From NCBI GenBank assembly GCA_963768055.1, contig CAVYGN010000002.1:1792001-1856000 (forward strand): a DNA stretch of 64,000 bases, given 5' to 3'. The notes under the pieces are model-generated. The model did no database searches and was not told where the DNA came from. It saw nothing but the letters and a program-made list of their open reading frames with translations. The first letter of the stretch is position 1. The number at the start of each line of letters is the position of its first letter. Position numbers and translations under genes: made by a program. Shown one piece after another: positions 1 to 62,828 of the stretch. Origin of the DNA: an uncultured Spirochaetota bacterium. GTDB taxonomy: Bacteria; Spirochaetota; Brevinematia; Brevinematales; JAOACQ01.

Positions 1-674
1 CTGAGAGAAATATCAATATTTTCCAATTCTTCCAGGGCTCTTGCGCAAACTGTCGTATGTGCGATTACCGAGTCTCCCGCTATCGATTCGGCGATATGAG
101 GGAAAAAACGGGTGTTTTTTCCCAGAAAAAGCTTTTCTACTCCGCGGTGCTGGTAGCCAAGCTGGATCTCCAGGTGGTAGAGGTTTTCTCCATGGCAGGA
201 AAAACGGAAATGGCCCGGTTCGATGATGCCGGCATGCACAGGGCCTACCGCTACCTCATGGATCTCATCGCCTTCGATTTTAAAAAAAGGATAATTTTCC
301 ATTGTTTGAGTTTTATCAAACCTGTCCGAAGAATACCTCACCGGCTTCAGCCATGGATGGCCCTCAGGTTTAATTCCAAATTCTTCAAAAAATTCCCTCT
401 CGAACATATGTAAAGAGGGCATTTCAGGCGTAATAGCCGGATATGATCTTTCACTTTTGAACATTGCCGAAGATACAAGCAGCCTGGAGTTTTCATCATC
501 CGCCAGGACTGTAAAAAGAAGGACCCCTTCGCGCTTTTTCAGGCCGAAGAAAGCCACAACTCTTTTATAGTTCCTGCATTCCTTTATTATTTCACTCCTC
601 AAAGCTTGAATGTCCAGAACCGGTATTTCATCCAGATTCAAGACCCGGCTGTTTCTCGTTATTGCCCAGTTCAT
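1..674 (-). CDS. hyfG: HyfG/HycE-like (NuoC/D-family) large subunit of an Ehr-type complex; 5' part only, runs off the window
   Basis: Not in the ORF track. Manual translation from ATG at 674 (overlaps the stop of the hyfF-like gene): MNWAITRN...GHPWLKP...EVAVGPVHAGIIEPGHFRF...LGYQHRGVEK...AESIAGDSVIAH. Confidence 0.9.
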   Translation of the reverse strand, partial: MNWAITRNSRVLNLDEIPVLDIQALRSEIIKECRNYKRVVAFFGLKKREGVLLFTVLADDENSRLLVSSAMFKSERSYPAITPEMPSLHMFEREFFEEFGIKPEGHPWLKPVRYSSDRFDKTQTMENYPFFKIEGDEIHEVAVGPVHAGIIEPGHFRFSCHGENLYHLEIQLGYQHRGVEKLFLGKNTRFFPHIAESIAGDSVIAHTTVCARALEELENIDISL

Positions 675-2080
675 TTCAGGCCGTCCGCCGCATTCGTTAT
701 GATCCGGAATATGTAATCAGGAAGCCCCAGGCCCATTGAGAAAAGAAGGGACAGCATGATCGCCTGCGGAATAATATTTAGAAATCTATTGTGTGAAGGG
801 GAGATCTTATGTTCCGGTTTTCCCCAGCTCATTTTAAAAACAGCGGTTCCCATCCCGGCAATAGTAACTGTAATTAAAAGAAAGAATAAAATAACCATTA
901 CAGGCTGTCCGTTTCCGATCATTGCCTTCACAATGGCAAACTCGCTGAAAAATATCGGAGAAGGCGGTATTCCGGCTATGCCGATAAATGAAAGTATCCA
1001 GAACCAGCCGGTTGCCGTATCGTTTTTTAAAAGGCCTGAGACGCCGTCTGTTTTTTTAGTGCCGAAGCTATGAAGAATATTTCCGGAGGTTAAAAAGAGC
1101 GAAACCTTGGAAAGAGAATGAAATACGATCTGCAGGAAAGCGGCCAAAACAGCGCTTCCGCCGATACCCAGGGCAATAGAAATTATGCCCATATTTTCAA
1201 TGGAAGAATAGGCCAGCATCCTTTTATAATTTTTCATCCTTACTATATAAACGGCGCTAACAAGCAGAGACAGGAATCCCATGCCGATCAGAAGTATTTT
1301 TGCAAAGCCGTCCTGTCCAGCCTGGATCATCAGCTTGTAAACCCGGATAATCCCCAGCAGCGCGGTGTTCAGAAGAGTGCCTGAAAGCATAGCCGATACA
1401 GGGGACGGCGCTTCCGAATGAGCGTCGGGAAGCCAGGCATGCATTGGGGCCAGGCCGGTTTTTGTCCCGAGACCGACTAAGATGAAAATAAATGAAAGTT
1501 TAAGCCAGAACGGGTTGATCAGCTTTGCGTTTTGATAGAGATCGGTAAAAAAGAGCGAATTTATGCTGCCCATCCCCAGGGACAGGAAAATGATCCCGAC
1601 AAAGGCCAGGGATATACCGATGGAGCAGATGAATATGTATTTCCAGGCTGCTTCGAGCGAAGCATCGGTCTTGCTGAAATAGATAAGGTAAGAGCTTGTC
1701 AGGGTCGTAGCCTCCACGAACACCCATAACAGGCCCAGGTGGGTTGCCAGTATCACACAGGTCATTGAAAAAACAAATAGAAGAAAGAAAACGGTATAAT
1801 AAGTATGGCTCTTTTTCGGAGCCTCGCTGCGCCTCAGGTAACCGATATTGTAGATTGAAACACAAAAATAAAGTACGGCAAGTATCATCATAAAAAGAAT
1901 ATTGATCTCATCAACCTGAAGATAGGGGGTAAATTGCCCGGGCTTTAAAAGGAGAAGAATCGTAATAAAAATGTAAATAATGGAGTATCCCAGATTGGCG
2001 AACGCATTGATCGATCTTGATTGAATGAGAAAGAGCAGAAGCCCCAATACAAGCGGGAAAATTAAAAGCGTTTCAATCAT
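671..2080 (-). CDS. hyfF: HyfF-like proton-translocating membrane subunit (NuoL/M/N-MrpA/D family)
   Basis: Multi-TM protein with WVFVEATT, HAWLPDAHSEAPSPVSAMLSG and KRMLAYSSIE motifs; operon position. Confidence 0.9.
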   Translation of the reverse strand: MIETLLIFPLVLGLLLFLIQSRSINAFANLGYSIIYIFITILLLLKPGQFTPYLQVDEINILFMMILAVLYFCVSIYNIGYLRRSEAPKKSHTYYTVFFLLFVFSMTCVILATHLGLLWVFVEATTLTSSYLIYFSKTDASLEAAWKYIFICSIGISLAFVGIIFLSLGMGSINSLFFTDLYQNAKLINPFWLKLSFIFILVGLGTKTGLAPMHAWLPDAHSEAPSPVSAMLSGTLLNTALLGIIRVYKLMIQAGQDGFAKILLIGMGFLSLLVSAVYIVRMKNYKRMLAYSSIENMGIISIALGIGGSAVLAAFLQIVFHSLSKVSLFLTSGNILHSFGTKKTDGVSGLLKNDTATGWFWILSFIGIAGIPPSPIFFSEFAIVKAMIGNGQPVMVILFFLLITVTIAGMGTAVFKMSWGKPEHKISPSHNRFLNIIPQAIMLSLLFSMGLGLPDYIFRIITNAADGLK

Positions 2081-2082
2081 AG

Positions 2083-2718
2083 TTAGTCCTTTAAATCTGT
2101 TAACGTGTCTATATGGTCCCGATTGTAGCGGATTTGTATTTTATTTACAAAGAGGCCTAACAGATAGATGCAGATAAATATGTCCAGAAGCACCCCCATA
2201 TTTACTATCAGCGGCATTTCCTTTGCAATGGACAGCGAGAGAAGGAATATGCCGTTTTCCAGCATCATATATCCCATTACATGAGTAACTATCTTTTTCC
2301 TGGTCATAATAATGAAGAGCGCTGAGATAATAAATGAGATCGATATTCCGAAATAAAGCGGCCTGATATTATTTCCGTTTTTCATCGACCAGTAGGAGAT
2401 GAAAAATCCGAAAGCAAAAATAATACTTACTATCAGTACGGAATAAAAACCGGGCAGATAGGGCTCAACTTCCTTCAAAATCGAGTTTTTTCTTACTATG
2501 CGGACCAGGATAATCGGGATGATAATAGTTTTGAATATGATAGTCTCTAAAGAAAGAAATAAAAAAGTGACCTGCTCGATCCTTCCGAAATCTGCCAGTA
2601 TCATTAAAAACAGGATTATTCCCTGTACGGCCAGAGCTTTGATATAACCCTCTATACGGCTGGTCGCCGCTGTAAAAAGAAGGGTTACGCCGAATAGAAC
2701 GAGTAGAAAATTTATCAT
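2083..2718 (-). CDS. hyfE: HyfE-like membrane subunit
   Basis: Hydrophobic, GYMMLENGIFL motif; start MINFLL at 2718 overlaps the upstream stop (ATGA). Confidence 0.85.
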   Translation of the reverse strand: MINFLLVLFGVTLLFTAATSRIEGYIKALAVQGIILFLMILADFGRIEQVTFLFLSLETIIFKTIIIPIILVRIVRKNSILKEVEPYLPGFYSVLIVSIIFAFGFFISYWSMKNGNNIRPLYFGISISFIISALFIIMTRKKIVTHVMGYMMLENGIFLLSLSIAKEMPLIVNMGVLLDIFICIYLLGLFVNKIQIRYNRDHIDTLTDLKD

Positions 2719-3638
2719 GGCCTGACTCCGAAAGAGAAAAATGCAGTCAAGGATAATATAATTAACGCGAGAGATGTCATCAGCAGAATAAATTGCGGTA
2801 CCTTGGACATCCTGAGCCTGGCTATAAAAGACTCCAGGCAACCTATGAGTACGGCGCTTATCATTTGCACTGCGGTAAATAACAAAATGTAATAAAAAAG
2901 AGGCAGGTTCACGGGAATAATAAGGGCCTCAATAAGTGAAGTAATAACAACCATTTTCATTCCCGATCCGTAATTGATAAGGGCCAAGTCGGGCCCTGAA
3001 TTGTCCAGGACCATTACTTCATGGATCATAGTAAGTTCGAGATGGGTGTTCGGGTCGTCTACAGGCACTCTTGAGCCTTCGGTAATGAGCATAATAAATA
3101 ATGCGGCTATTATCAGGGCCATTATCAATGTTATCAAACTGTTATGCAGATAGGGAAGGGAGAGTATCTTTTCAAAAGATATGCTTCCCGAAAGCATCGC
3201 CAGCGATGCCATGATTATGAAGAAAGCCGGTTCGATAAAGCTGGTAAAAGCCGCCTCGCGGCTCGCGCCCATTCCCTCGAAGCTTGAACCGGTATCCATT
3301 GCGCCCAGGATGCTTAAAAACTTGCCGGTTGCCAGGATATAGGCAAACAATATGAAGTCGCCGTCGAAGGGCAGGACAGAAGAACTTAATGTAATCGGAA
3401 CCAGCAGACCTGCGAACAGGATTGAAGCGAACGTGACGGATGGCGCTATCTGAAAAATAATTGAAGTGGAAAACCCGATTACTTCGCCCTTTTTCAATAA
3501 TTTAAAAAAATCAAAGAACGGCTGAATTACCGGGGCCCCCTTCCTTCCCGTCCAGAAGGCCTTGGTTTTATTAATAATACCGAGATATAAAAAGGGCATA
3601 GTTAAAAGGAATATGATATTTATTATTTTTACCGTCAT
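2715..3638 (-). CDS. hyfC: HyfC/HycD (NuoH-like) membrane subunit
   Basis: GRKGAPVIQPFFD, DTGSSFEGMGASRE and RVPVDDPNTHLELTMIHE motifs; start MTVKII at 3638 (ATGA overlap). Confidence 0.9.
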   Translation of the reverse strand: MTVKIINIIFLLTMPFLYLGIINKTKAFWTGRKGAPVIQPFFDFFKLLKKGEVIGFSTSIIFQIAPSVTFASILFAGLLVPITLSSSVLPFDGDFILFAYILATGKFLSILGAMDTGSSFEGMGASREAAFTSFIEPAFFIIMASLAMLSGSISFEKILSLPYLHNSLITLIMALIIAALFIMLITEGSRVPVDDPNTHLELTMIHEVMVLDNSGPDLALINYGSGMKMVVITSLIEALIIPVNLPLFYYILLFTAVQMISAVLIGCLESFIARLRMSKVPQFILLMTSLALIILSLTAFFSFGVRP

Positions 3639-5624
3639 TTGTAGCTGCCTATAGTCAGGAGTATTGTTATGATGAGAAAGATTAGGCCGTAAAGAATGTA
3701 CAGCTGGGTGTTTCCGTTCTGGATCCATGAAAACAATTCGAGGAATTTTAAGACTCCTTTAACGGCCGGCCTTATGATATTTTGAGTTACCCAATCACGG
3801 CTCTCCGATTGAAAGTCCGAAGTTACGGGAAAAAGCCCGGAAGGCTTTTTTAATTTTTCTTCAATACCGGCTAAGGGCTTCATCAGCGCCAGGAACGGCT
3901 GGGCAAAGGAGGATGAAGTATACTGCATCCGGGAGTTACCCGCCTGATAACCGCAGTTCCAGGTTTTAAAATACCTTACGGATTTCCCCGCCAGAAGTAT
4001 ACGCCTGAAGACGATTATTATTATTGATATCGATATAAAAACCATGCAGCCTGCCGAGATTCTGCCGAGGATAAGTATAATTCCTTCGGAAGATAACACA
4101 GGCTGCGCCCCCTGCGTAAGCGCCATTACAGGTTTTTCCACCATATTGAAGACATATTGTGGAAATATCCCGATTATTAAACAGAACAGGGATAATAAAG
4201 CCATCGGGATCAGTAAAGTCATTTCACTCTCCCGGGCTTTTTCGGCATGAAAGCTTCTGGGCAAGCCCAGGAAAACTGTACCCGAAACCTTTGTAAAGCA
4301 TAACAGGGCCATTGTTCCGACAAAAGCTAATGAGGCTATGGTAAGGACTAAGACGGTAAAGATAACCGCGCCTCCTGTTTTAAGCCCTGAAAGCATCCCT
4401 GAATAAATCAGAAATTCGCTTATAAAACCGTTAAAGGGCGGGAGTCCGCAGATTGCGGCGGAACCGATGATAAAAAACAGGGCTGTAAAGGGCATTTTTT
4501 TAATCAGTCCCCCCATTTCTTCGATATTCCGGGTATGGGTTTTCATATATACGGAACCTGCACCGAAAAACAGCAGCTCTTTGAAGATCGAATGGTTGAG
4601 AATATGGAGCAGCCCCCCGCCGAAACCAAGGAATGCCATCATGGCGTTGCCGTAAGAAAGTCCGAGCATGCCGGTCCCTATTCCTATTCCGATAATACCT
4701 ATATTTTCAACACTGTGATAGGCAAGAAGCTTTTTTATGTCATGCTGGGCTATTGCGTAGATCACTCCGAAGAGCGCTGAAAGGGCGGATATTATGATGA
4801 CAAAGTATGAAAGACCGGGAGAAGGCGTTCCTATTCAAGGTAAGTATCCTGAGAATGCCGTATATTCCGGTTTTGATCATGATACCCGACATAATTCCGG
4901 ATACGTTACTTGGCGCGGCCGGATGCGCCCTGGGAAGCCATGAATGAAACGGCATAAAGCCGGCTTTTGTCCCGAAGCCGGCGAAAAACAAAATAAAAAT
5001 TAAATTTGCTGTTTCCTTATTTTTTTCAAAAAAGGATTTGAAAGAATTAAAATTATAATCACCGGATTGGAGCGAGGCGATAATAAATCCGGCGATGATG
5101 AATACTGTGCCGATATGCATAGCTATGAGATAATTAATGCCGGCCCGGAATACTTCTTCTTTTTCATTCTCAAAAACCACAAGGAAAAATGACGATAGCG
5201 ACATAATTTCCCATAGTATTAGAAAAAATAATGCGTTCTGGACGACAAAGAGCATAAGCATGGACGAGATCAAAATGCTCAATAAGAAGAAAAAGGAGGT
5301 TGTCGTCATTTTCCGGCCGAAATAAATCTTCATATATCCGGTGGAGTAGAAGGCCCCCAGGGAACCCATAATAGAAATTATAATGATAAAAAAGGCGGAA
5401 AGGGGATCGATAATAAAACTTACACTGCCGATCGGCTGATTCAGCGTATAATCAAATAAAAGGCTGCCGTTTCCGGACAGAACCCGGACCGATGGAAACA
5501 GGAGTAAAACCGTTCCGGCAGCGAAAAATATCGTTAATATCCAGCCTTTGAATTTCTCCGGGATTAGCGTTGTTAATAAACCTCCGGCCAGAATCAGGCC
5601 GATACCATAAAAAAAACAATCCAT
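3635..5624 (-). pseudogene. hyfB: HyfB/HycC-like membrane subunit split by a one-base frameshift near 4834 (true pseudogene or sequencing error)
   Basis: ORFs 4740-5624 (LILWEIMSL, HSWLPRAHPAAPS) and 3635-4765 (KKLLAYHSVENIG, PPFNGFISE) join if one A is removed from ACC TTG A ATA GGA. Confidence 0.85.
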
Positions 5625-6406: not shown

Positions 6407-7390
6407 TTAAACTCCGGATTGCAACGGTTTATTCCCCAGGACGGCTTCGATCCTTTCTTCCACTTCAGGGGTGAGTTTGGGTACGGTCTCAAGGGATTTA
6501 ATATTCTCGATCACCTGGCCGGGACTGCTCGCTCCTGTAATAACCGTGCTTATATTTTTATTTTTCACGCACCAGGCAATCGCCAGTTGGGCCAATGTGC
6601 AGCTTAAATCCGACACGATAGGTATGAGCTTCCTGACTTTTTCGATCCTTTCCGGGTTAAGCTCCCTATCCCTGAGCCACTCGTACCCCGGAAGGCCCAG
6701 ACGGCTTCCAGCAGGAATTCCATCATTGTACTTGCCTGTAAGAATTCCTGAATCCAGCGGGCTCCATGTCGTCAGGCCCAGGCCGATTTCCTTATAAAGC
6801 CTTAAAAATTCCCTCTCGACTTTTTCACGGGTGAACATATTATACTGGGGCTGTTCCATCCGCGGCTTATGCAGATGATGAGAGTCGGCGATCATATAAG
6901 CCTGCATTATCTGATCAGCGCTCCATTCGGAAGTGCCCCAGTAAAGGGCCTTTCCCTGTGAGATTATATCATGCATCGCCCATACTGTTTCTTCTACGGG
7001 AGTTTCCGGGTCAGGCCTGTGGCAGAAGATGAGGTCTACGTAATCCAGTTGAAGGCGTTTAAGCGATCCGTCAATAGCCTGCATCAGGTATTTTCTATTA
7101 AGGGTGAAACTTTCATTAGGACCTTTGTTCAATCCCCAGAAAAACTTTGTCGAAATGGAATAGCTGACCCTCCGCCAGCCTAGTTTCTTAAGAGTGTTCC
7201 CCATTATTATCTCGGACTGACCTAAGGCGTAAGCTTCCGCGTTATCGAAGAAATTGACGCCCGCGTCATATGCCGCCTTCATAATAGCGATCGATTTCCC
7301 CTCGTCGACCTGCGTTCCGTATGTTACCCAAGAACCGAGAGACAACTCGCTCAATTTAAGTCCCGAGCTTCCAAGATGTCTGTAATTCAT
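6407..7390 (-). CDS. Aldo/keto reductase (Kv-beta-like)
   Basis: [24 protein letters not shown] and TWSPL motifs. Confidence 0.9.
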
Positions 7391-8262: not shown

Positions 8263-9297
8263 TTATTGGGAATTATATTTTTCAGTATATTCTTTCCAGA
8301 ATAATTGATTTTGTTTCAGTAATTTTGGAATGTCCAGATTATAAGGGCATCTGCCGACGCATTTTCCGCACTCTGTACATTTATCAACCTGCATAATCTG
8401 ATCGTTAACCATTGAAAATGCCCTTTCAAACGGCATTCTTTTAATGAATGAATTGACCACCAATACTGTGCTGATCTTAATATCTTCGGGGCAGGGCTGG
8501 CAATAATCGCACCTGTGACACCAGACGCCGCCGGATTCTTTGCGTATTCTTTCGATTTCTTCTTTTTCCGATTTTGAAAGCGGAATCATCTTATCAACTA
8601 TGTCGGATATTTCTTTCATTTCGCCGATTTTTTCAATTCCGGGGTCCGGGACAATGCCGTCGAACTGCAAAAGATATTTAAAACAGAGATTTGCATCGTT
8701 CAAAAGTCCGCCTCCCAACGGCTTCATTGCAATAATTCCCAGGTTCATTTTTTTTGCAAGGGGTATTACTTCTTCTTCAGCCTGCCTGTCTATAAAATTA
8801 TACGGGATCTGAATCGAATAGAATTTATCGGTCATCAGCATTTTTTTTGCAATACTCATCGTATGGGAGCTGAATCCTTCGAATCTGACTTTACCCTGTT
8901 TTACGGCAAGCGACAGCCCTTCATAAGCTCCGTCTTTTGCCATTACAGCGTTAAATTTTTCTTCAGAGCTTACGCCATGAAGCTGATAAATATCTATATA
9001 ATCGGTTTTGAGTCTTTTCAAAGAATTATCGATATGTTCCAAAATGGTTTTTTTATCGCCTGCCGCAGACTTTGTTGCAATTACAAGTTCGTGCCTTGGA
9101 ATTCCATTAATTGCAATTCCTATTTTTTCCTCGCTGTCGGAATAGCCTTTCGCAGTATCGATGAAATTTATACCTAAATTCAAAGATTCTTTAATTACTT
9201 CGACGGCTAGGGGTACTGGGAGACGCATGATCGGAATTCCTCCGAATGCAACTCTGCTGACCATTAATCCTGTTTTACCGAATGCTATTTTTTTCAT
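8263..9297 (-). CDS. Aldo/keto reductase with C-terminal 4Fe-4S dicluster
   Basis: FGGIPI, FIDTAKGY and AMKPLGGG; CHRCDYCQPCP and CTECGKCVGRCP. Confidence 0.9.
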   Translation of the reverse strand: MKKIAFGKTGLMVSRVAFGGIPIMRLPVPLAVEVIKESLNLGINFIDTAKGYSDSEEKIGIAINGIPRHELVIATKSAAGDKKTILEHIDNSLKRLKTDYIDIYQLHGVSSEEKFNAVMAKDGAYEGLSLAVKQGKVRFEGFSSHTMSIAKKMLMTDKFYSIQIPYNFIDRQAEEEVIPLAKKMNLGIIAMKPLGGGLLNDANLCFKYLLQFDGIVPDPGIEKIGEMKEISDIVDKMIPLSKSEKEEIERIRKESGGVWCHRCDYCQPCPEDIKISTVLVVNSFIKRMPFERAFSMVNDQIMQVDKCTECGKCVGRCPYNLDIPKLLKQNQLFWKEYTEKYNSQ

Positions 9298-9375: not shown

Positions 9376-10368
9376 TTAATTTTTTTCAACCCTCGCACCC
9401 TGAACAATCAGCGGCTTATAAATTGCCGAAGCCCCGGATTCGTAAAGGGCGCTTTCCAGCGGCGAAATATCTTCCCCGGGCCAGAGGGCTATTATCGTAC
9501 CGCCGCTGCCCGCTCCTGCAAGCTTCGCCCCAAGGGCCCCGGCTTTAAGAGAAGCGGAAATCAGCCGTTCGTTCGGTTCGCCCGAACCTCCCAGCAAACG
9601 CTGGATTTTGTGATTTTCATTCATCAGATCCCCTAAAAGCGGCCAGTCTTTTAAAATAAGCGCCTTTTTTCCCTGCCTGGCAAGGTCCGCGATCTTTTTA
9701 TATCCTTCCACAACGTCGGCCTCGCCATTCAGCCAGCGTTCCGCGATGGGCCTGTGAACATTGCCTGAAATTCGTTTCACTCCGGTATGAGCAAGGATAA
9801 AGGGCAGATCTTTTACAAAACCTGCAAGCGGTTCGACCGAAGCGTAATTTTTATCATCTGTAATGCCTGAAAAATATTTCCCCCTGAATTCCATATAATT
9901 CAGGCCCCCGAAAACGTTCATATAGGCATCCTGAAACCCGCAGACGATTTTGAGGTGATTAAATTCTATATAACGTACCTTCTCAGCAAGCTCGTAAGAA
10001 TTCGGATATATTCCCCGCCAGGCAAGAAGCGCCTGAAGTATGGCAGTAAGAAGGGCGGTGGAACCGGCCATGCCGCTTTGAACTGGGATCACGCTTCCGA
10101 ATCGGATCCGGCAGCATAATTCCGGCAATTCCATGAAATCGAGGACCGCGCGCACTATATCGAAAGAATCGTTCCGTAAACGTATATCATCCGGACCGGC
10201 TACTTTAATTTCCCTGCCTCCCGTTTCCATTACAAGGCCCTGTTCGGGCGTCAGGGCTGCAAAGGCGAGCATTCCTATCGAACAGGAAAGGACCGCTCCT
10301 CCGTACATATCCGATGGATTTCCGATAATAGCCGCCCTTCCCGGCGCGGTTGCAGTCAGCCCGGTCAT
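9376..10368 (-). CDS. GHMP-family sugar kinase, glucuronokinase-like
   Basis: GHMP motif IPVQSGMAGS and GAKLAGAGSGG; GNPSDMYG and SGNVHRPIAERWLNG resemble plant glucuronokinase as recalled. Confidence 0.8.
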   Translation of the reverse strand: MTGLTATAPGRAAIIGNPSDMYGGAVLSCSIGMLAFAALTPEQGLVMETGGREIKVAGPDDIRLRNDSFDIVRAVLDFMELPELCCRIRFGSVIPVQSGMAGSTALLTAILQALLAWRGIYPNSYELAEKVRYIEFNHLKIVCGFQDAYMNVFGGLNYMEFRGKYFSGITDDKNYASVEPLAGFVKDLPFILAHTGVKRISGNVHRPIAERWLNGEADVVEGYKKIADLARQGKKALILKDWPLLGDLMNENHKIQRLLGGSGEPNERLISASLKAGALGAKLAGAGSGGTIIALWPGEDISPLESALYESGASAIYKPLIVQGARVEKN

Positions 10369-11243
10369 ATCTTTCCGGCCAGGTCTTTTATATATTTGCG
10401 GACGGAGTTTCCGTACCGGGAGTCGGAAAGTGAAAAATCGATAAAAGCCCGGAAATAGCTCTCAAAGTTGCCTATGTCGTAGCGTCTCTGATTTGCTGAA
10501 AGAGGCCAGGCGTAAACCGGCCTTCCCATGCCGATAAGCAGCCTTATCGCATCTGTCAACTGTATTTCGCCGTTCCTGCCGGGCCTGGATTTTTTCAGGG
10601 CCTCAAAGATATGCGGGCTGAAAACATACCTTGCGGCAACTGCGAGGCAGCCCGGTGAGTTTTCCGGAGAAGGTTTTTCGACAATATCGGCCATAACAGC
10701 CGCTCTGCCGGAGCCTGGCGGGCCTTTATGCCCGATATCGGCAATACCGTAACGAAAGGTCTCGGCGGGTGAAACCTCTTCGACGGCTATAGTCGCAGAA
10801 GCTCCCGATTCCCTGTGGAACTTCAACATTTCAGGAAGCAATTCCTCATTATCTTTTGCATCGATGATGCTGTCTCCCAGTGCAACGGCAAAATCTTCAC
10901 CTCCTGTGAAATCTTCACACAGAGATACGGCATGTCCCAGACCCCTTGGAATGTCCTGGCGCGTGTAAAAAAAACGCAATTTACCTTCAAGGAATTTAAA
11001 ATCCTTCAACGCTTCGCCGCTTAATGAATTGTCAATGTCCAGATGGTCTTCGATCGCCCTTTTTTGCCTGCAGGTAACTGTCATTACCTGGGTTATTTCC
11101 GCCCTCAGCAGTTCTTCAGCCACATAATGTATTACAGGTTTTCGTCCGACCGGCAGCATCTCCTTCGGCAGGGCTTTGGTAAGGGGTAAAAGCCTTGTTC
11201 CCAATCCTGCAGCCGGTATGACCGCCTTTACGATCGGAATCAT
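10365..11243 (-). CDS. galU: UTP-sugar-1-phosphate uridylyltransferase (GalU family)
   Basis: KAVIPAAGLGTRLLPLTKALPKEMLP, GLGHAV, VEKP and GEIQLTDAI motifs. Confidence 0.85.
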   Translation of the reverse strand: MIPIVKAVIPAAGLGTRLLPLTKALPKEMLPVGRKPVIHYVAEELLRAEITQVMTVTCRQKRAIEDHLDIDNSLSGEALKDFKFLEGKLRFFYTRQDIPRGLGHAVSLCEDFTGGEDFAVALGDSIIDAKDNEELLPEMLKFHRESGASATIAVEEVSPAETFRYGIADIGHKGPPGSGRAAVMADIVEKPSPENSPGCLAVAARYVFSPHIFEALKKSRPGRNGEIQLTDAIRLLIGMGRPVYAWPLSANQRRYDIGNFESYFRAFIDFSLSDSRYGNSVRKYIKDLAGKI

Positions 11244-11266
11244 TTTTCCCTCCTTGAAGAAACTAT

Positions 11267-13039
11267 CTAACGGTAATGATAAAAATTTTGAAGTTCATAG
11301 AAAGCCAGTTTTCTTTTCTTTTTATCGGCGGACAATAATCCCTTAATATTATAAAAATTCTGAATCGGATGCAGACGGCGGGGGCACCGGAAATCGTAAA
11401 GAATCCATGGGGAGAGGCCCTTTACGCTTTTAATTTTCGCTATCACGGCAAGCTGGTTTTTATAAACGTCAAGCTGGCAATCCTCGGTGTAGATATCTTC
11501 TGATGAACCTCTTTCCCCAGCCCGGGCGTCCGCCCCGAATTCGGAAATAATTACCGGCTTGGACGGCCTGCTGTTTCTGAATATCGTTGAAAGTTTATTA
11601 AAATCCCTCTCGTACCACCCGTAATATTCATTTATACCTATGACATCCAGGTGCTCCGCTATACGGTCGGCTATCTTTAAATTTTCATGGTCTACAAGAC
11701 AGGCTGCGGATACAAGCCTTGAAGGATCGATTTCCCTCGCCTTTTGAACCAGTCCGGCCATGAATCTGTAACGGGGATCGGTATCCGGGTTTTCATTGCC
11801 CACAGACCAGAAAATTACGCTTGCCCTGTTTCTATCCCTCTTGATCAATTCCGTAAGCTGGTTGATAGCATCGCGGTATGTTCCGGGATTGGAAAAATCG
11901 ATAGCCCAATAAACCGGTATTTCTTCCCACAGCATGATGCCCATTTTATCTGCGAGTTCTGCAGTTCTTTCGGTATGGGGATAATGGGCCAGCCGGATAT
12001 AGTTGCAGTTCAATTCCTTTGCAAGCGATATATTTTCTATAATCTCGTCGTCGGACATGGCTTTTCCGTTTTGAATGCTTTCCTCATGGCAGCTTATTCC
12101 CTTAAGAAAGACAGGTTTGCCGTTCAACAGGATTTCATTCCCGTTCGTTCTGATCTCGCGGAAGCCTATACTGTCCCCGACCGAGTCATTAGCATAGGAT
12201 AAAGCCACATCGTAGAGCTTCGGTTTTTCAGGAGACCATAATTCAGGGGCAGCCTTGAAAAGGGCTTCTCCCCTGCCGCCTTTGACAGCGATCGGAACGT
12301 GGAGGGAAAGCCCGGGTATATCAAGAACGGCTTTACCGTTTTGCACCTCGCCGGCCACGGCCATGAAGGCCCTGATTAATTTAAAATCGCTATTAGGGAC
12401 CAGGCTCAGACTGAATTCACTTATAAAAGTTTCAGGAAGCCTGATTAATTCGACGTCGCGATAAATCCCGCCGTAATTGAACCAGTCCATATTCTCGCAT
12501 GGAACATTCGTTCTTTTACGGGTGTTATTGGCCACGATTAGAATCCTGTTGGTATTTTGAAGAAAATCGGTCGCTTCAGCATAAAAAGGGGTTGAGCCGC
12601 CTAAATGCAACCCGACGAATTTGCGGTTAAGGAAAATCTTGGCTTCGTAATTGACAGCTCCGAATTTGAGAAAGACCCTTTTCTCTGCGTGACGCCTGTA
12701 ATTGAAAGTCCTGGTATATATAGCGCTTCCTTCGTATAAGAAAAAGCGTTCGCCAAGCATATTCCAGCATGAAGGCACAAAAATAGTTTCCCACTGTTCA
12801 AAGCTGAAGTCAAGAGGGAGCGGCCGGCCCTCGTCATCAAAATAACTTTCCTCGTACCACCTGGAACGGATGCAGTTGTCGTATTGATCTATCCCGAAGT
12901 TCCACCAGCCGTTGAGGGATTCTTTTTCCCTGCCGCGGTCGAAGATCATCTCGTCGCTTTTAATAAGTTTTTTTAAGAAGGGAGCATTGTAATCGATATC
13001 ATGTATATTGGAAAAGAAATCATCCTTCTGAAGCGCCAT
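11267..13039 (-). CDS. uidA: GH2 beta-glucuronidase
   Basis: DWFNYGGIYR, RLAHYP, WSVGNE (acid/base), ISEFG (nucleophile) and NIKG (NxKG glucuronidase signature). Confidence 0.85.
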   Translation of the reverse strand: MALQKDDFFSNIHDIDYNAPFLKKLIKSDEMIFDRGREKESLNGWWNFGIDQYDNCIRSRWYEESYFDDEGRPLPLDFSFEQWETIFVPSCWNMLGERFFLYEGSAIYTRTFNYRRHAEKRVFLKFGAVNYEAKIFLNRKFVGLHLGGSTPFYAEATDFLQNTNRILIVANNTRKRTNVPCENMDWFNYGGIYRDVELIRLPETFISEFSLSLVPNSDFKLIRAFMAVAGEVQNGKAVLDIPGLSLHVPIAVKGGRGEALFKAAPELWSPEKPKLYDVALSYANDSVGDSIGFREIRTNGNEILLNGKPVFLKGISCHEESIQNGKAMSDDEIIENISLAKELNCNYIRLAHYPHTERTAELADKMGIMLWEEIPVYWAIDFSNPGTYRDAINQLTELIKRDRNRASVIFWSVGNENPDTDPRYRFMAGLVQKAREIDPSRLVSAACLVDHENLKIADRIAEHLDVIGINEYYGWYERDFNKLSTIFRNSRPSKPVIISEFGADARAGERGSSEDIYTEDCQLDVYKNQLAVIAKIKSVKGLSPWILYDFRCPRRLHPIQNFYNIKGLLSADKKKRKLAFYELQNFYHYR

Positions 13040-13247
13040 TTTTGTCCCCTGAATTCAAAATACGGCGTTAAAGTATAAATTCTTATCCAATTATTTTCAA
13101 TACAAATTTTATAATTCTCTCAAAGCTTCAACAGGCGATATTCTTCTTGCCCGCCTTGCAGTGACAGCAGTATAGCCGTCCCCCGTCTGTCATATTTTGA
13201 TTAAAGTCAGTTATAACCTTAGAATATAAACCGATGCTGGAGGCATA

Positions 13248-14313: not shown

Positions 14314-14802
14314 TTGATGCAGAAAACCGACGTCGAGGAATATTATAAAAAGTATGGCCCTATGGTGCTGAGGAGATGCAGGTGGCTTCTCAAAGACGAG
14401 GAAAGGGCGCTTGATGCTATGCAGGATGTGTTTGTTCTTCTACTGAGAAATCTGGACAGGCTTAAAGGCGAATATCCGTCAAGCCTTTTATACAAAATGG
14501 CGACCAATGTCTGCCTGAACCTGATCCGGGACAGCAGGAAAATAGCCGAATCAAGGGATGAGGAAGTTTTGAATTCGATCGCATCGGCCGGCGATCAGTT
14601 TTCCGGGATAGTTGAGAGCGACATATTAAACAGGCTTTTTGACGGCGAGAAAGAATCGACAAGGGCCATTGCCGTATATCACTACATAGACAGGCTGACG
14701 CTGGAGGAAACTGCGAAGGAGACAGGTCTTTCTGTTTCAGGGGTGCGGAAGCGTTTGAAAAGGCTCCGAGAAAAAGCCGACATTCAGGAGAAATTATTAT
14801 GA
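14314..14802 (+). CDS. ECF-type sigma-70 factor
   Basis: ALDAMQDVF and LYKMATNVCLN (region 2); TLEETAKETGLSVSGVRKRL (region 4). Confidence 0.9.
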   Translation: MMQKTDVEEYYKKYGPMVLRRCRWLLKDEERALDAMQDVFVLLLRNLDRLKGEYPSSLLYKMATNVCLNLIRDSRKIAESRDEEVLNSIASAGDQFSGIVESDILNRLFDGEKESTRAIAVYHYIDRLTLEETAKETGLSVSGVRKRLKRLREKADIQEKLL

Positions 14803-15593
14803 AAGAGAATAATATATCGGATCTTAAGCTTGAAAGATATTTTCTAGGCGAATTGCCTTCCCGGGAGCTCAATAAAATAAAGTCCTTATTGGAGACGGAC
14901 CAAGCCCTTTCAGAACGTCTCGATAACCTTAGAAAATCCAACGAGGATATACTAAGCCTTTATAAATCTTCGGAAATAGCGGAGAGGATCCAACGCCGCC
15001 TGAGGGCCTCGGAGGCAGAGGCCTACACCCGGGGAAAATCGGGAAAAAAAGCCGGTATGTTCAGGCGTTATAAATTTTTAATGCCCGCCCTGTCTGCCGC
15101 AGTACTGGCGGCCGTAATGATTCCGATCGTTATTCTGTATATAGGAAATGGGAATGATTACCGTGTCAAGGGGCAGGCTTCCCTCCTGATATACAGGAAA
15201 ACCGCATCCGGCGGAGAACTGCTGAAAAACAGCGATAATGCAAGGAAAGGCGACCTTCTCCAGCTCGGATATACTGCCGGGAGGGAAAGATACGGAGCGA
15301 TATTTTCCATAGACGGCAGAGGCAATCTTACATGGCATTTTCCTTTAAATGTCAGTAACGATACCCGGCTTGAACAGGGGCGAAGGGCATTGCTGCCGGA
15401 ATCTTATGAACTCGATAATGCGCCGGAATTCGAACGCTTCTTTTTTGTTATGTCGGATAAGAAAATAAACCTGAGCGATGTTATCCTTAACGCAGGTATT
15501 CTGGCCGGGGACCCCGGCAGCTCCGGAGTAAAAAGCCTTGAACTTTTTAAGAATTATCAGGTGATTGTAATAACATTATTGAAGAGGGATTAA
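14799..15593 (+). CDS. Putative membrane anti-sigma factor with DUF4384-like extracytoplasmic domain
   Basis: Coupled to the ECF gene; LERYFLGEL N-terminus, single TM, RVKG...GDLLQL...SIDGRG...SYELDNAPEFERFF. Confidence 0.65.
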   Translation: MKENNISDLKLERYFLGELPSRELNKIKSLLETDQALSERLDNLRKSNEDILSLYKSSEIAERIQRRLRASEAEAYTRGKSGKKAGMFRRYKFLMPALSAAVLAAVMIPIVILYIGNGNDYRVKGQASLLIYRKTASGGELLKNSDNARKGDLLQLGYTAGRERYGAIFSIDGRGNLTWHFPLNVSNDTRLEQGRRALLPESYELDNAPEFERFFFVMSDKKINLSDVILNAGILAGDPGSSGVKSLELFKNYQVIVITLLKRD

Positions 15594-15596
15594 AAG

Positions 15597-17726
15597 ATGA
15601 AAATCCGGATTTGTTTTGCAGTCCTTTTTATAAACATGATTATTTTTATGCATGCTTACAGCTTTCAGGAGAATGGTACGCCCCTGCGGAGGTTCGGCTT
15701 TTTTATTGGTGAGAATGACGGCGGCCATGACCTGGAACCCTTACGCTATGCAGTGCGCGATGCCGAGTCGGTTTCCCGCCTGTTCATGGAAATGGGTGGT
15801 ATAAAACAGCAGGACAATATATTCCTAGTAGAGCCGTCACTGGAAGAAATCCAGGGTAAGCTGAAAACTCTTAAGACGAAGCTTGGATCGCTACGAAGCA
15901 AATATTCCAGGCTGGAGCTGATTTTTTATTATTCAGGCCATTCCGATGAAGAAGGCTTACTGGTCTCGAAAGATAAATTTTCATATAAAGATTTAAAAGA
16001 TGCAATCAGAGACATGCCTGTCGATATGCGTATTGTTATACTGGATTCATGTTCTTCAGGAGCGCTCACAAAGCTTAAGGGAGGAACCAGGCAGCAGGCG
16101 TTTTTAATGGACAATTCGATAAAGATGGAAGGTTATGCGATCATGACCTCAAGCTCTTCAGATGAAGCCTCCCAGGAGTCCGACAGCCTGAAGGGCTCAT
16201 ATTTTACCTATGCTCTGATATCAGGACTCAGGGGGGCTGCCGATACGGGGGGAAATAAAACGGTTACCCTTAATCAGGCCTATCAGTATGCTTACAGGGA
16301 GACCCTTGCGAAAACGGAAAAAACTCTCGGGGGGGCCCAGCACCCGAGCTACGATATACGTATGAACGGTTCCGGAGATGTCGTATTGACCGACCTCCGG
16401 CGGACGACAGCCTCTCTGAAACTTGCGCCGGACATTTCCGGCAGGCTTAATATCCGTGATGATTCCGGCATCCTCGTGGCGGAGATAAACAAAGTCGAAG
16501 GCAGCACTGTCGAACTGGGGATGGAACCGGGTCCCTATAAAATCAATGTTGAAATCGGCAGGAAGGACTACCAGGGTGAAATAACGATTAATGAAAACGA
16601 AAGCGCCGTTTTTTCAAAAGATTTACTGGCTGAGGTAAGTACGGAAAAGACAACAATGCGCGGAAATGAAAATTCTGCCGATCAAACGAATAAGCCTTCT
16701 GAAAATTATATTACGATCCCGTTCTCTTTGACCGTTTTACCATTGTTAAATACTACATCAAATAAAACAATCATCAATCTGGAGCTGAATATCGGCGCAG
16801 GGTACTGCGACAGGCTCGAGGGGACAGCTATCGGGTTTGTTAATATCACAGGAGAGAATGCAAAATACCTGGACTTATCCCTGACCAGTTTGACTTTTCA
16901 TGATTTTACCGGATTTGAAGCCTCTCTTCTGGCCTTCACAGGCCATGATTTTAAAGGCGCACAGTTATCGCTGGTTAATATAGTAATGAATGATTTCGAT
17001 TCGTTTCAGTCGGGGCTTGCCAATATAGACGGAAGAGACTTTCATGGCGTTCAATTAGGACTTGTTAATATCGATGGAAATAATTTCAACGGTTTCCAGG
17101 CAGGCCTGGTTAATATTATAGGGAACAGTTTTTCAGGCTTCCAGGCCGGATTGGCTAACCTTGACATTTATTCATTTAACGGCCCGGAGATCGGGCTTCT
17201 TAATATAAATACTGAAGTGAGCGGCTTGCAGCTCGGGCTTATCAACTTTTCCACCGGGCTGAACGGCGAAGCGATAGGGCTGATCAGTGTCGTTTTATCT
17301 AACGGTCAGACGCATCTAGAAGCCTGGGCGGATGAAACGGGATTTTTAAACATAGCCTTGATCAACGGCTCCAGGACAGTTTACAATATTTATACGATAG
17401 GCATCGATACGGCAGGGACATACTGGACATACGGGCTTGGATTGGGTTTACATATACCGGCCGATCCTTTCTATATAAACGTTGAAATTATAGACTCCAG
17501 CGTCAGCCATATCGCCGCATGGGACGGCAATAATACTCTCGGAAGGTTCAGGGTATATGCGGGTTTCAGTATTTTCGAACATCTGTCAGTGATAGCGGGC
17601 GTCTCGCTGAACTACTACAGGAATTGGAATGGAAATTCGGCCTATGTTCCCTCCTTTAATATAAGCAAGAGTTTTGCGGACGGCGGCATATTGTGGCCCG
17701 GAATTTTCGCCGGACTGCAATTTTAA
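15597..17726 (+). CDS. Exported caspase-family (peptidase C14) protein with C-terminal LA_2272-like repeats
   Basis: Signal peptide; His/Cys dyad in YYSGHSD and ILDSCSSG; ~15-aa GFQAGLVN repeats; C-terminal Phe. Confidence 0.85.
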   Translation: MKIRICFAVLFINMIIFMHAYSFQENGTPLRRFGFFIGENDGGHDLEPLRYAVRDAESVSRLFMEMGGIKQQDNIFLVEPSLEEIQGKLKTLKTKLGSLRSKYSRLELIFYYSGHSDEEGLLVSKDKFSYKDLKDAIRDMPVDMRIVILDSCSSGALTKLKGGTRQQAFLMDNSIKMEGYAIMTSSSSDEASQESDSLKGSYFTYALISGLRGAADTGGNKTVTLNQAYQYAYRETLAKTEKTLGGAQHPSYDIRMNGSGDVVLTDLRRTTASLKLAPDISGRLNIRDDSGILVAEINKVEGSTVELGMEPGPYKINVEIGRKDYQGEITINENESAVFSKDLLAEVSTEKTTMRGNENSADQTNKPSENYITIPFSLTVLPLLNTTSNKTIINLELNIGAGYCDRLEGTAIGFVNITGENAKYLDLSLTSLTFHDFTGFEASLLAFTGHDFKGAQLSLVNIVMNDFDSFQSGLANIDGRDFHGVQLGLVNIDGNNFNGFQAGLVNIIGNSFSGFQAGLANLDIYSFNGPEIGLLNINTEVSGLQLGLINFSTGLNGEAIGLISVVLSNGQTHLEAWADETGFLNIALINGSRTVYNIYTIGIDTAGTYWTYGLGLGLHIPADPFYINVEIIDSSVSHIAAWDGNNTLGRFRVYAGFSIFEHLSVIAGVSLNYYRNWNGNSAYVPSFNISKSFADGGILWPGIFAGLQF

Positions 17727-17739
17727 CATCCCACCAAAA

Positions 17740-17766
17740 GTAACACATTCTCCTCTTTCCCGTGTT
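17740..17766 (+). promoter_or_regulatory. Putative ECF sigma promoter GTAACA-N16-GTGTT
   Basis: Matches 14267-14293 in motif and spacing. Confidence 0.65.
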
Positions 17767-17790
17767 TAAATATTATAAACAAGAAGGAGA

Positions 17791-18951
17791 ATGAGTATGA
17801 AACTAATTCAATCGTTAATTGTTGCGGTTTGTCTTTTATCGGCGGGCCTGATGTATGCTGGGGAAGAAAATAACAGCCAGACAAACTACGTCGTTGTTCC
17901 CTTCAGCGTGACGATTTTCCCGATATGGGGAACCGGAATGAAGACTATCGACGATGCCCAGATTAATATCGGCGCCGGTTATTGCGATATGCTCGAGGGC
18001 CTGTCCATGGGCTTTGTCAACATAGTAGGAGAGGATGCAGTGGGCCTCGACTGCTCTCTTGTGGGGATTACAGGCCATAATTTCAACGGCGTGCAGTGCT
18101 CCCTTGTGACTTATACCGGGAATGACTTTTCCGGAGGACAATTCAGCCTGGTGAATATCGTTTCCGGAAATTTCTCGAAGGCGCAGTCAGGGCTGGTTAA
18201 TATTGTTGGAGGGAATTTTGAAGGATTCCAGGCCGGGCTTATGGATATTGTTGCGGGAGATTTTAAAGGCTTCCAGGCAGGCCTTGCAAATGTCAATCTG
18301 GGAAATTTCAACGGTTTCCAGGCAGGACTGGTTAATATTATGGGAGACGGATTTTCGGGTTTTCAGACCGGATTGGCCAATCTTGACATTTCATCTTTTA
18401 ACGGGCCGGAGATCGGACTTTTAAATATTAACATGGAAACGAGCGGCTTCCAGTTCGGGCTTATCAACTTTTCAAAGGGGCTGGACGGCGAAGCTATAGG
18501 GCTCATCAGTATCGTTTTAAGCAATGGACAAACCCATGGGCAGATCTACGTGGATGAAAACGGTTTCGGAAATATAGCGCTGATAAACGGTTCCAGGACA
18601 ATTTATAATATTTATACAGTCGGAATCGATCAAACCGGTACGTACTGGACGTATGGGCTCGGCCTGGGTTTGCATATACCTCTCGATCCTTTTTATATAA
18701 ATATGGAAATTATAGGCTCCAGCGTCAGTCATATTTCGGCATGGGACGGGAACAATACCCTCGGAAGATTCAGGGTTTATGCCGGATTCAGCATATTCGA
18801 ACACCTATCCATGATAGCAGGCCTTTCTCTGAACTACTACAGGAGCTGGAATGGAAATCCTGCGTATGTTTCCCCATTCTATAACTTAACTAAGACTCTT
18901 GCGAACGGCGACACATTATGGCCCGGGATTTTCGCGGGCGTAATGTTTTAA
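17791..18951 (+). CDS. LA_2272-like surface repeat protein; paralog of the C-terminal half of the upstream caspase gene
   Basis: Signal peptide, GFQAGLVNI repeats, near-identical C-terminal blocks (IALINGSRT, YWTYGLGLGLHIP, WDGNNTLGRFRVYAG). Confidence 0.8.
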   Translation: MSMKLIQSLIVAVCLLSAGLMYAGEENNSQTNYVVVPFSVTIFPIWGTGMKTIDDAQINIGAGYCDMLEGLSMGFVNIVGEDAVGLDCSLVGITGHNFNGVQCSLVTYTGNDFSGGQFSLVNIVSGNFSKAQSGLVNIVGGNFEGFQAGLMDIVAGDFKGFQAGLANVNLGNFNGFQAGLVNIMGDGFSGFQTGLANLDISSFNGPEIGLLNINMETSGFQFGLINFSKGLDGEAIGLISIVLSNGQTHGQIYVDENGFGNIALINGSRTIYNIYTVGIDQTGTYWTYGLGLGLHIPLDPFYINMEIIGSSVSHISAWDGNNTLGRFRVYAGFSIFEHLSMIAGLSLNYYRSWNGNPAYVSPFYNLTKTLANGDTLWPGIFAGVMF

Positions 18952-49532: not shown

Positions 49533-50594
49533 ATGGGGCTCATTAAAAGATCGAACGGAATATATTATGTTCGAATCAAGAGAAGCGGAATCCTGACAAT
49601 GTTCAGCCTGAGAACCAGAAACAACCATCTGGCAAACGATCTGTATCAAGCATATCTGGTTCAACAATTGAGATCAAATATCGCTCCTTCGGCTTTTAAA
49701 AAAGTAAAAGCAGCTGGCTCACGACAGGAAAAAAAGAAAGATACTCCTTATACAAATCAGTTAAAACATACGTTTGAATCCATTTGGAACGAATATTTCC
49801 AGGCAAAGATGGCAAGTAAACTCTCCAAATCGCAGTTGGGTATAAAAAAACAAGTTTTTCGTCATTTGAAGGAATTTAAACTTTACAAGGTAGAAGGGAT
49901 AAACCAAGCTTTTCTAAATCAACTTTTCATATCATATAGAAGCAAATATACTGAAGACACAATCCGAAAATTCGTCGCGGAATTAAAATGCTTCCTGAAT
50001 TATTGCATCAAAAACGATGTATTTTCAGACAGGGAATATCACAAACTTACTTTTCCTAAAGTAATCACAAAGGTGAGAGACACATTGATTAAAAGGGATG
50101 ACATAGAGAAGATCCTTGAATACCTTAGACAAAATGATGAAGATTTCTATACTTATTTTTTAAATCTTTTAAACCTTTACGGCCGACCAAATGAAATTCC
50201 AGGTCTTCAGAAAAAGAATTTCAACTTCAATGAAAAGCTTTGTAAAGTGTATATGAATAAAACCCGGAAAGAGAAAACAGTTGTTTTGACGGACCAGAAC
50301 TTTATAAACTATATGAGGCAAATGACTGATTGTCTAAACGATGATGATTATATACTTAAAGGCCATAACCAGGGGCCAAGTTACTATCCAAATAAATTCA
50401 GGCGGCTTAAAGAAAAACTCAACTTGAATAGGAACTACTTCTTGTACAGTGTAAGGCACACTGTTTCAAGTTTATTATATGAAAAAACAAAGGATATAAA
50501 GTTTCTTACAAACCAGTTGGGAAATGAAGAGAAAATTCTTATTAAACACTACATTAACACCAATCTTGAGGATTTTAAAAAATATTTAGTTTGA
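49533..50594 (+). CDS. Tyrosine recombinase/integrase 1
   Basis: GRPNEI, NKT, YSVRH, QLGN, KHY; adjacent to the tRNA. Confidence 0.85.
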   Translation: MGLIKRSNGIYYVRIKRSGILTMFSLRTRNNHLANDLYQAYLVQQLRSNIAPSAFKKVKAAGSRQEKKKDTPYTNQLKHTFESIWNEYFQAKMASKLSKSQLGIKKQVFRHLKEFKLYKVEGINQAFLNQLFISYRSKYTEDTIRKFVAELKCFLNYCIKNDVFSDREYHKLTFPKVITKVRDTLIKRDDIEKILEYLRQNDEDFYTYFLNLLNLYGRPNEIPGLQKKNFNFNEKLCKVYMNKTRKEKTVVLTDQNFINYMRQMTDCLNDDDYILKGHNQGPSYYPNKFRRLKEKLNLNRNYFLYSVRHTVSSLLYEKTKDIKFLTNQLGNEEKILIKHYINTNLEDFKKYLV

Positions 50595-50831
50595 GGTAAG
50601 AAACTCTAAGGTCTTATATTTATCCGGCAAGATATTCTGGATCATCCCTTCCAAACATCTCTTCAAGTTCAATATGGCTATTTGTCTTCATTAAAAATAA
50701 TTAAAATATTTAAAAAAATTTTTATTTGTATACAATTAAATGAAATATCACTATTTTTGCCCAAAAATATATACTTTTTTATAACTATCTCAATTTATAT
50801 TTAGATATAAGAGGGAATGGTTTCTTAAAAA

Positions 50832-51911: not shown

Positions 51912-51981
51912 TTTTTAGAAATGTCAGTCATTTAAATTTTATGAGAAGTATAAATATTAACAATAAGGAGGGTAAAAAACA

Positions 51982-60054: not shown

Positions 60055-60056
60055 CA

Positions 60057-62795: not shown

Positions 62796-62828
62796 GGAAT
62801 GTCAACAAATAAATTTTAAGGGGAAGAT

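Follow-up and report, generated by a model that had tools for sequence, protein, structure and literature searches.

Several routes turn a free sugar into a sugar-1-phosphate and then into an NDP-sugar, bypassing de novo synthesis, among them those of the AmgK/MurU, Fkp and NahK types. These use other kinase families than the one considered here or act on other sugars, and we know of none that is coupled to a hexuronidase. Bacterial beta-glucuronidases (GUS) are usually discussed as feeding glucuronate (GlcA) into the UxaC/UxuAB catabolic route. In plants, free GlcA is converted to UDP-GlcA by glucuronokinase 1 (GlcAK1), a GHMP sugar-1-kinase that is specific for GlcA (EC 2.7.1.43), followed by a UTP-dependent UDP-sugar pyrophosphorylase (USP) (PMC2823444). 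In zebrafish and Xenopus, a glucuronokinase and a putative uridyl pyrophosphorylase are joined in one polypeptide, GKUP, in the order transferase then kinase, and the kinase domain of the zebrafish protein (DrGK) is specific for GlcA with a Km of 31 uM (PMC3938481). GlcAK genes in 'a few bacteria' were pointed out in 2009 (PMC2823444). Here we describe a three-gene cassette in 64,000 nucleotides of DNA (hereafter the window) from an uncultured Spirochaetota bacterium (GCA_963768055.1, contig CAVYGN010000002.1, positions 1,792,001 to 1,856,000), which combines a glycoside hydrolase family 2 (GH2) beta-hexuronidase with a GalU-like nucleotidyltransferase and a GHMP sugar kinase. On balance, we lean towards reading it as a hexuronate 1-kinase and a UDP-hexuronate pyrophosphorylase that would salvage the hexuronate released by the GH2 enzyme. 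A preliminary description of the window had proposed GlcA salvage at this locus and called the kinase-based route best known from plants; the plant route is as it said, and the zebrafish enzyme and the bacterial homologues noted in 2009 have to be placed beside it.

The GH2 protein P0003 (window 11267-13039, minus strand; 590 aa; Pfam Glyco_hydro_2_N, Glyco_hydro_2 and Glyco_hydro_2_C) is encoded first, followed by P0002, a GalU-like UTP:sugar-1-phosphate nucleotidyltransferase (10365-11243, minus strand; 292 aa; Pfam NTP_transferase), and P0001, a GHMP sugar kinase (9376-10368, minus strand; 330 aa; Pfam GHMP_kinases_N, GHMP_kinases_C and GalKase_gal_bdg). The GH2 and transferase genes are separated by 23 bp, and the stop of the transferase gene overlaps the start of the kinase gene by 4 bp. 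The tight three-gene operon of the preliminary description was recovered with open reading frames (ORFs) at exactly its coordinates and with matching Pfam families; none of the three proteins reached an NCBIfam equivalog cut-off. The three genes are co-oriented and nearly or actually overlap, and the linkage of GH2 and kinase is conserved in the lineage. Of 401 genomes of the phylum, four carry a kinase of the P0001 type (E<=1e-40). All four belong to the window's own family, and in each of them a GH2 orthologue (69-100% identity) was linked to the kinase, either adjacent to it or 3.7 kb away. The order GH2-transferase-kinase is found in the window genome and in G181; in G211, the GH2 gene is followed by 3.7 kb with three ORFs on the opposite strand and then by transferase and kinase. 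The flanking genes are unrelated in each of the four linked loci. GH2 orthologues were found in 5 of the 12 genomes of the family, and the fifth (G285, 57% complete; L180, G285:C19, 7212-8976) has no kinase or transferase within 7 kb. The first 52 codons of its GH2 gene lie in a different frame, which means a frameshift or an assembly error.

The motifs on which the preliminary description had based a glucuronokinase identity (GNPSDMYG, IVCGFQD...VFGGLNYMEF and SGNVHRPIAERWLNG) are all present in the P0001 translation. The plant motifs that it cited were matched in an alignment with Ziziphus glucuronokinase 1 (P0181; 28% identity, E 7e-28), in which GNPSDVY, GLQD..QVYGGLVYMDF and SGKVHSTVRQRWLDG align with those of P0001. 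A search for longer proteins returned fish GKUP, and identity to its kinase domain was also 28% (E 2e-30). GNPSD, G-x-QD..GL-x-YM-D/E-F and SG-x-V/I-H...RWLNGEA-x-VV line up between the two, and the motifs held in common with plant GlcAK1 are GNPSD, G-x-QD...GGL-x-YM-D/E-F and H-x5-RW-L-x-G. Matches to the two HddA-like kinases of the organism's own genome were far weaker (E 3.5e-11 and 1.2e-7). On NCBIfam models, P0001 scored 76 bits for MVK, 71 for HddA and 62 for GalK, all under the equivalog cut-offs; membership of GalK was rejected (TIGR00131, 44 bits against a cut-off of 226.65). More than 2,700 relatives of P0001, counted as clusters at 90% identity, were found at E<=0.001 among 8,000 candidates scored. 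They are mostly metagenomic proteins labelled 'galactokinase/mevalonate kinase-like', and the few that carry an organism name are from Chloroflexota. A search of PDB sequences with P0001 returned HddA, MVK and GalK-type structures only, none of them named glucuronokinase, and the ESM Atlas gave generic or automatic labels only. The full library was searched with fish GKUP, yielding 573 representatives at E<=1e-30; of the GKUP matches looked up by cluster, one was plant glucuronokinase 1 and others were bacterial (Planctomycetia) or IMG entries named 'glucuronokinase'.

Other domain fusions were also seen. P0123, an NCBI metagenome protein of 624 aa, is a W-clade kinase (the clade of P0001, defined below) 47% identical to P0001 and fused to an enoyl-CoA hydratase/isomerase-like domain (PF00378/PF16113). 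In Ostreococcus and its relatives (P0128 and P0308-P0309), MoeA-type domains for molybdopterin biosynthesis are joined to a kinase domain of the GlcAK clade, and these green-alga proteins are annotated solely as molybdenum cofactor biosynthesis.

For the phylogeny, we call W the bacterial clade of the window kinase and G the GlcAK clade, which holds the plant and fish enzymes. A careful maximum-likelihood tree was built from 59 rows (21 W, 21 G, 10 HddA/fucokinase (FucK) and 7 mevalonate kinase (MVK)), the HddA and MVK sets being supplemented from genomes of the phylum. IspE-like and GalK rows, P0130, 14 of the 34 GlcAK rows, one fucokinase and two near-duplicate MVKs were left out; of the 40 window-family rows, 19 left the W set, 17 W-clade rows being dropped and two (L039_Chthono and L045_Chthono) regrouped with HddA/FucK. 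In this tree, W and G fall on one side of a branch with support of 97 by ultrafast bootstrap (UFBoot) and 90 by the Shimodaira-Hasegawa-like approximate likelihood ratio test (SH-aLRT), and the clades themselves are supported at 95/94 (W), 100/100 (G) and 100/99 (HddA+FucK). Profile-profile scores from HHalign agree with the careful tree: W against G scored 404.8, W against HddA/FucK 321.9 and W against MVK 292.7, while G scored 218.9 against HddA/FucK and 178.9 against MVK. Motif I, G-N-P-S/T-D-x-Y/F, is invariant in all 21 W and all 21 GlcAK rows and different in HddA/FucK and MVK, with N17, P18 and D20 present in 21/21 rows of both clades. The H-x5-R-W motif is also retained in most rows (W against GlcAK: H205, 21/21 and 19/21; R211, 18/21 and 20/21; W212, 21/21 and 17/21). 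Four columns are common to W and G only (N17, P18, A35 and W212), as against two common to W and HddA/FucK only (V26 and Y149). By profile, motif and tree, glucuronokinase has its nearest relative in P0001, which has the same sugar-binding motif I but is not a member of the GlcAK clade. We also observed that in L039 and L045, both metagenome-assembled genomes (MAGs) of Chthonomonadales, two GHMP kinase genes lie within ~1.3 kb of each other, one of the W clade and one that groups with HddA/fucokinase.

The transferase gives a second line of evidence. P0002 and the N-terminal domain of P0127, a metagenomic protein of 625 aa, have 43% identity; the C-terminal kinase of P0127 falls within clade G, with 37% identity to plant GlcAK1. 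A domain similar to P0002 (39-49% identity) also precedes a kinase 44-48% identical to plant GlcAK1 in three more fusions, P0330, P0342 and P0365, of which P0365 comes from an Anaerolineae MAG. In a quick tree of 63 rows, the fused domains and the transferases upstream of W kinases were separated (SH-aLRT 93) from 47 generic GalUs, made up of 12 from the phylum and 35 out of a set of 36 diverse GalU-like domains. Outside the lineage, counting loci with at least 900 bp upstream, the W kinase has a nucleotidyltransferase gene directly upstream of it at 25 of 62 loci in genomes and at 16 of 47 in metagenomes. Judged by these relatives, P0002 belongs to a kind of transferase that recurs in bacteria as the partner of a glucuronokinase-type kinase, either in a fusion or as a separate gene, and we propose it as a UDP-hexuronate pyrophosphorylase. 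P0002 keeps the 41 positions that are conserved in both GalU and the kinase-linked clade, including G13-x-G15-T16-R17, K23, K27, D124 and E189-K190-P191 (the G-x-G-T-R-x-L-P-x-T-K and V-E-K-P motifs), and with them the residues with which GalUs bind nucleotide and phosphate. Its score on the galU model TIGR01099 was 240 bits against a cut-off of 326.8. This says little about divergence or re-specialisation, because no GalU in the 41 genomes sampled from the phylum exceeded the cut-off (the best reached 273). A second GalU-like gene of the genome, on the other contig (G000:C1:1275481-1276257), scored 238.8 bits and is 33% identical to P0002. The re-specialised GalU paralog proposed in the preliminary description draws on this distance and on the grouping with GlcAK-fused domains, and not on the sub-cut-off score.

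The short (~240 aa) transferases beside Armatimonadota W kinases proved not to be of the GKUP type and group with other NTP-transferases. An apparent 759-aa transferase-kinase fusion in L065 consists of two genes in different frames. At residue 34 of P0002 (window ~11142-11144, minus strand), in a P-V-x-x-K-P motif, the kinase-linked clade has Arg in 8 of 10 rows and the housekeeping GalUs of the phylum have Asp in 11 of 12, a reversal of charge.

The bacterial pairs and fusions of a GlcAK-clade kinase with a GalU-like domain (P0296 from Planctomycetia, and P0127, P0330, P0342 and P0365) are alike in coupling a transferase 39-49% identical to P0002 to a sugar-1-kinase, and are predicted to carry out UDP-GlcA salvage. 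Their kinases are 44-48% identical to plant GlcAK1 (P0127, 37%), compared with 28% for the window kinase, and no adjacent GH2 hexuronidase was found among those examined. A literature search by titles found no biochemical study of a bacterial glucuronokinase, which is no proof of absence. The transferase-then-kinase order of fish GKUP (PMC3938481) is also the gene order of the cassette. GKUP is one polypeptide and the cassette has two genes; the GKUP N-terminal domain has no detectable BLASTP similarity to P0002 (E 0.37) and forms a clade of its own. The plant pyrophosphorylase is a large eukaryotic USP and that of the window is GalU-like, and the source of GlcA also differs: inositol oxygenase or wall turnover in plants (PMC2823444), and a neighbouring GH2 hexuronidase here.

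The best solved relative of P0003 is FsGUS (6ncy/6ncz), named beta-glucuronidase, with 723 bits over residues 5-588, followed by 6d89/6d1n, the galacturonidase 7vqm and 6d8k; BuGUS-1 matched with 454-462 bits and the E. coli-type GUS with ~171 bits. On the NCBIfam beta-glucuronidase model of E. coli UidA type (NF007538), P0003 scored 253 bits against a cut-off of 544, and the PDB sequence matches place it in the FsGUS/BuGUS-1 branch rather than in the UidA branch. The N-x-K motif of P0003 (YNIKG, the N-x-K-G quoted in the preliminary description) aligns with YNRKG of 6ncy; this motif, on loop 8, is described as binding the C6 carboxylate (PMC12243196). The Y-W motif (IPVYWAI) aligns with ipvywai of 6ncy and ipvywti of 6d89. 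In the review PMC10535898, the YW motif is assigned to the hybrid glucuronidase/galacturonidase enzymes FsGUS and BuGUS-1, with Arg in its place in pure galacturonidases. P0003 resembles FsGUS (6NCY/6NCZ) and BuGUS-1 (6D1N etc.) over nearly its full length and has both motifs, and is thus predicted to be of the hybrid type. These two are gut Firmicutes/Bacteroides enzymes studied for cleavage of drug and oestrogen glucuronides, and the accessible text of the same paper makes no mention of coupling to a kinase or transferase (PMC10535898). The hybrid-type motifs imply that the released sugar may be GlcA or galacturonate (GalA). The GUS assignment made earlier keeps its glucuronidase motif in this light and gains galacturonate as a candidate. 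On direct reading of the translation, no hydrophobic signal-like stretch was seen at the N-terminus of P0003.

The assembly (3.69 Mb in two contigs, 94.75% complete) supplies the background for this route. A canonical GalK (374.5 bits) lies outside the window (G000:C1:~795350-797510) in a 721-aa frame, the N-terminal part of which opens with GalT-like sequence, which suggests a GalT-GalK fusion. Two HddA-like clusters with HddC, GmhA and GmhB are located elsewhere (HddA-like genes of 397 and 189 bits, with HddC-GmhB or GmhA/GmhB neighbours), and an IspE-like kinase is also present. Since the canonical GalK and two HddA-like kinases lie elsewhere, P0001 is neither the organism's GalK nor its HddA. 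A Ugd-like nucleotide-sugar dehydrogenase was detected (TIGR03026, 427 bits), and UDP-GlcA appears to be a metabolite that the cell makes. UxaC and UxuA were not found in the 94.75%-complete genome. In the salvage route that we favour, P0003, acting in the cytoplasm, would hydrolyse imported beta-D-glucuronides, and possibly beta-D-galacturonides, to free hexuronate; P0001 would phosphorylate this at C1 with ATP to GlcA-1-phosphate (or GalA-1-phosphate); and P0002 would combine the product with UTP to UDP-GlcA (or UDP-GalA). The UDP-hexuronate would then join a nucleotide-sugar pool that could also be filled via the Ugd-like dehydrogenase. As no UxaC or UxuA was found, salvage would be the principal route taken by the freed hexuronate in this organism. 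We infer each of these catalytic steps from gene order, homology and linkage, which are observed.

Several results weigh against the hexuronate assignment. P0001 lies outside the monophyletic GlcAK clade (100/100 in the careful tree), with W as the sister of that clade, and is just 27-28% identical to its members. In the first, quick tree of 84 rows, which included long-branch IspE and GalK rows, W and G were separate clades and W fell with HddA/FucK/MVK/GalK (SH-aLRT 84, backbone unresolved); this tree was replaced because of its long branches and unresolved backbone. In an approximately unbiased (AU) test, the alternative W+HddA/FucK grouping was not rejected (delta lnL 4.19, p 0.269). Arg148 and Gln151, which are invariant in all 21 GlcAK-clade rows (G-L-Q-D-R-V-x-Q), are missing from W, which has A or Q at 148, Y at 149 and C, T or A at 151. 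W also has QD-A/Q-Y and the longer GAGxGG forms, as HddA does, the glycine-rich motif III of GlcAK being two residues shorter. The glucuronokinase identity of the preliminary description, which had looked to a GHMP phylogeny, is real as a resemblance, P0001 being placed in the sister clade of GlcAK (97/90) in the careful tree and being neither the GalK nor the HddA of its genome; the resemblance does not extend to membership of the GlcAK clade, and an affinity to HddA/fucokinase was not rejected statistically. For the transferase, the trees are quick trees, and the kinase-linked group in them also takes in P0322, which has no kinase domain. In zebrafish, the fusion protein's own pyrophosphorylase activity was weak or unproven (PMC3938481).

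The neighbourhood adds further points of this kind. In G276, GH2 and kinase are adjacent without a transferase between them. Outside the lineage, among loci with enough sequence to show it, GH2 was found near the W kinase at one of 67 in genomes and at none of 43 in metagenomes; the single case is arranged as in G276. The conservation of neighbourhood to which the preliminary description appealed is therefore 4/4 in related genomes and 1/110 beyond them. Other neighbours of W kinases are HAD phosphatases, aminotransferases, GFO/IDH/MocA oxidoreductases with xylose-isomerase-like TIM barrels, and further an FGGY kinase with aldolase/SDR, CinA, GH20 and a sulfatase. Given these varied neighbours, the W clade may hold several specificities, and the hexuronate assignment rests on the window's sub-lineage. 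No transporter gene is present within the three-gene cassette.

A less likely alternative is that kinase and transferase activate a sugar other than a hexuronate: either the second sugar released when a GlcA-beta-1,x-glycoside is cleaved, or an unrelated envelope-glycan sugar, the GH2 gene then being tied to the pair on looser grounds. The distinctness of W from GlcAK, whose invariant Arg148 and Gln151 it lacks, speaks for this, as do the HAD, aminotransferase, GFO/IDH/MocA, xylose-isomerase-like and FGGY kinase plus aldolase/SDR (rhamnose-type) neighbours of W elsewhere, and the confinement of the GH2 linkage to one lineage. However, the linkage of GH2 and kinase outlasts a change of both flanks in all four genomes, the transferase beside the kinase is of a type also found fused to kinases of the GlcAK clade, and motif I is the same as that of GlcAK.

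We regard as improbable a catabolic or regulatory role for the pair, in which hexuronate-1-phosphate or UDP-hexuronate would be an intermediate on the way to UDP-xylose, pentoses or another breakdown route replacing the isomerase pathway. UxaC and UxuA are missing from the genome as found, which fits such a role, and in L005, from another phylum, a gene for a UxaC-like amidohydrolase (Pfam 42 bits; 4i6v-like) comes after a W and transferase pair. Two aldo-keto reductase genes also lie 3' of the kinase gene on the same strand, the first 78 bp downstream (window 8263-9297, minus strand), with a C-terminal 4Fe-4S dicluster domain, and the second (6407-7390, minus strand) Kv-beta-like with 346 bits, slightly below the cut-off. 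A role for them as hexuronate reductases is conceivable, but neither is conserved beside the cassette in the three related genomes (G181, G211 and G276), and the cassette itself holds no decarboxylase or epimerase. This catabolic alternative has its first two steps in common with the salvage route that we favour.

Least of all do we expect the kinase to be an HddA-like heptose-7-phosphate kinase whose transferase makes NDP-heptose for glycan synthesis: its best solved matches are HddA-type (4n3o, E 1.5e-15; 3k85), the AU test leaves W+HddA/FucK standing, the automatic Atlas name is 'D,D-heptose 7-phosphate kinase family' and some W members adjoin GmhB-like HAD genes, but P0001 scores 71 bits on the HddA model NF049969, whose cut-off is 600, two HddA-like clusters including HddC, GmhA and GmhB are already present in the genome, no GmhA, GmhB or HddC lies near the cassette, motif I is GNPSD as opposed to the GGGTD of HddA, and the transferase is GalU-like (UTP type) and not HddC-like. 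The HddA/HddC pair of the GDP-D-glycero-alpha-D-manno-heptose pathway resembles the cassette in setting a GHMP kinase gene by a nucleotidyltransferase gene and is the second-closest kinase family by profile score; it differs in its substrate, a sugar 7-phosphate, in its requirement for GmhA and GmhB and in motif I.

Upstream of the GH2 gene, a consensus scan found a promoter-like -35/-10 pair (window 13072-13100, minus strand; TTGAAA-17-TATACT, 10 of 12 matches) just before the GH2 start. It is the best site of the region and weak evidence, as the scan gave 12 sites in total against a shuffle mean of 9.4, which is not above shuffles. Other genes of the window were read from the translations. 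At 14314-18951 (plus strand), an ORF for an extracytoplasmic function (ECF)-type sigma factor is followed by a putative anti-sigma ORF and by two paralogues of 709 and 386 aa, both with an extended series of 'GFQAGLVNI'-like repeats and with a C-terminal part that is conserved between them; the 709-aa paralogue shows a caspase-like H...C pattern in its N-terminal region. At 671-5624 (minus strand), a run of polytopic membrane proteins resembles Mrp/Mnh antiporter or hydrogenase-4 membrane subunits, and the ORFs at 4740-5624 and 3635-4765 look like a single gene that is split or frameshifted. The G+C content falls to 0.27-0.29 at 50001-52000 and 60001-64000, compared with ~0.42 elsewhere, and these stretches may be AT-rich islands or foreign DNA.

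Salvage of GlcA by bacteria is in itself not a new idea; what is new here is a sister-clade kinase and its conserved coupling to a hybrid-type hexuronidase. As a tentative extension, it is possible that W is a second, purely bacterial family of hexuronate 1-kinases which in this lineage, with a dedicated GalU-derived UDP-hexuronate pyrophosphorylase and a hybrid GH2 enzyme, makes up a mobile three-gene cassette giving glucuronate an anabolic fate (UDP-GlcA/UDP-GalA) where the isomerase pathway is lacking. If this reading is correct, a very large unannotated clade of GHMP kinases would gain a function, as would a GalU-like clade whose present annotation is UTP-glucose-1-phosphate uridylyltransferase. 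One-pot synthesis of UDP-GlcA, which today relies on the Arabidopsis kinase, could also profit from compact bacterial kinase/pyrophosphorylase pairs for GlcA (or GalA). For the organism, scavenged conjugates would be turned to building envelope or exopolysaccharide without the two NAD+ reductions of the Ugd route, and bacterial glucuronidase action would have an anabolic outcome that is not considered in the gut GUS literature examined.

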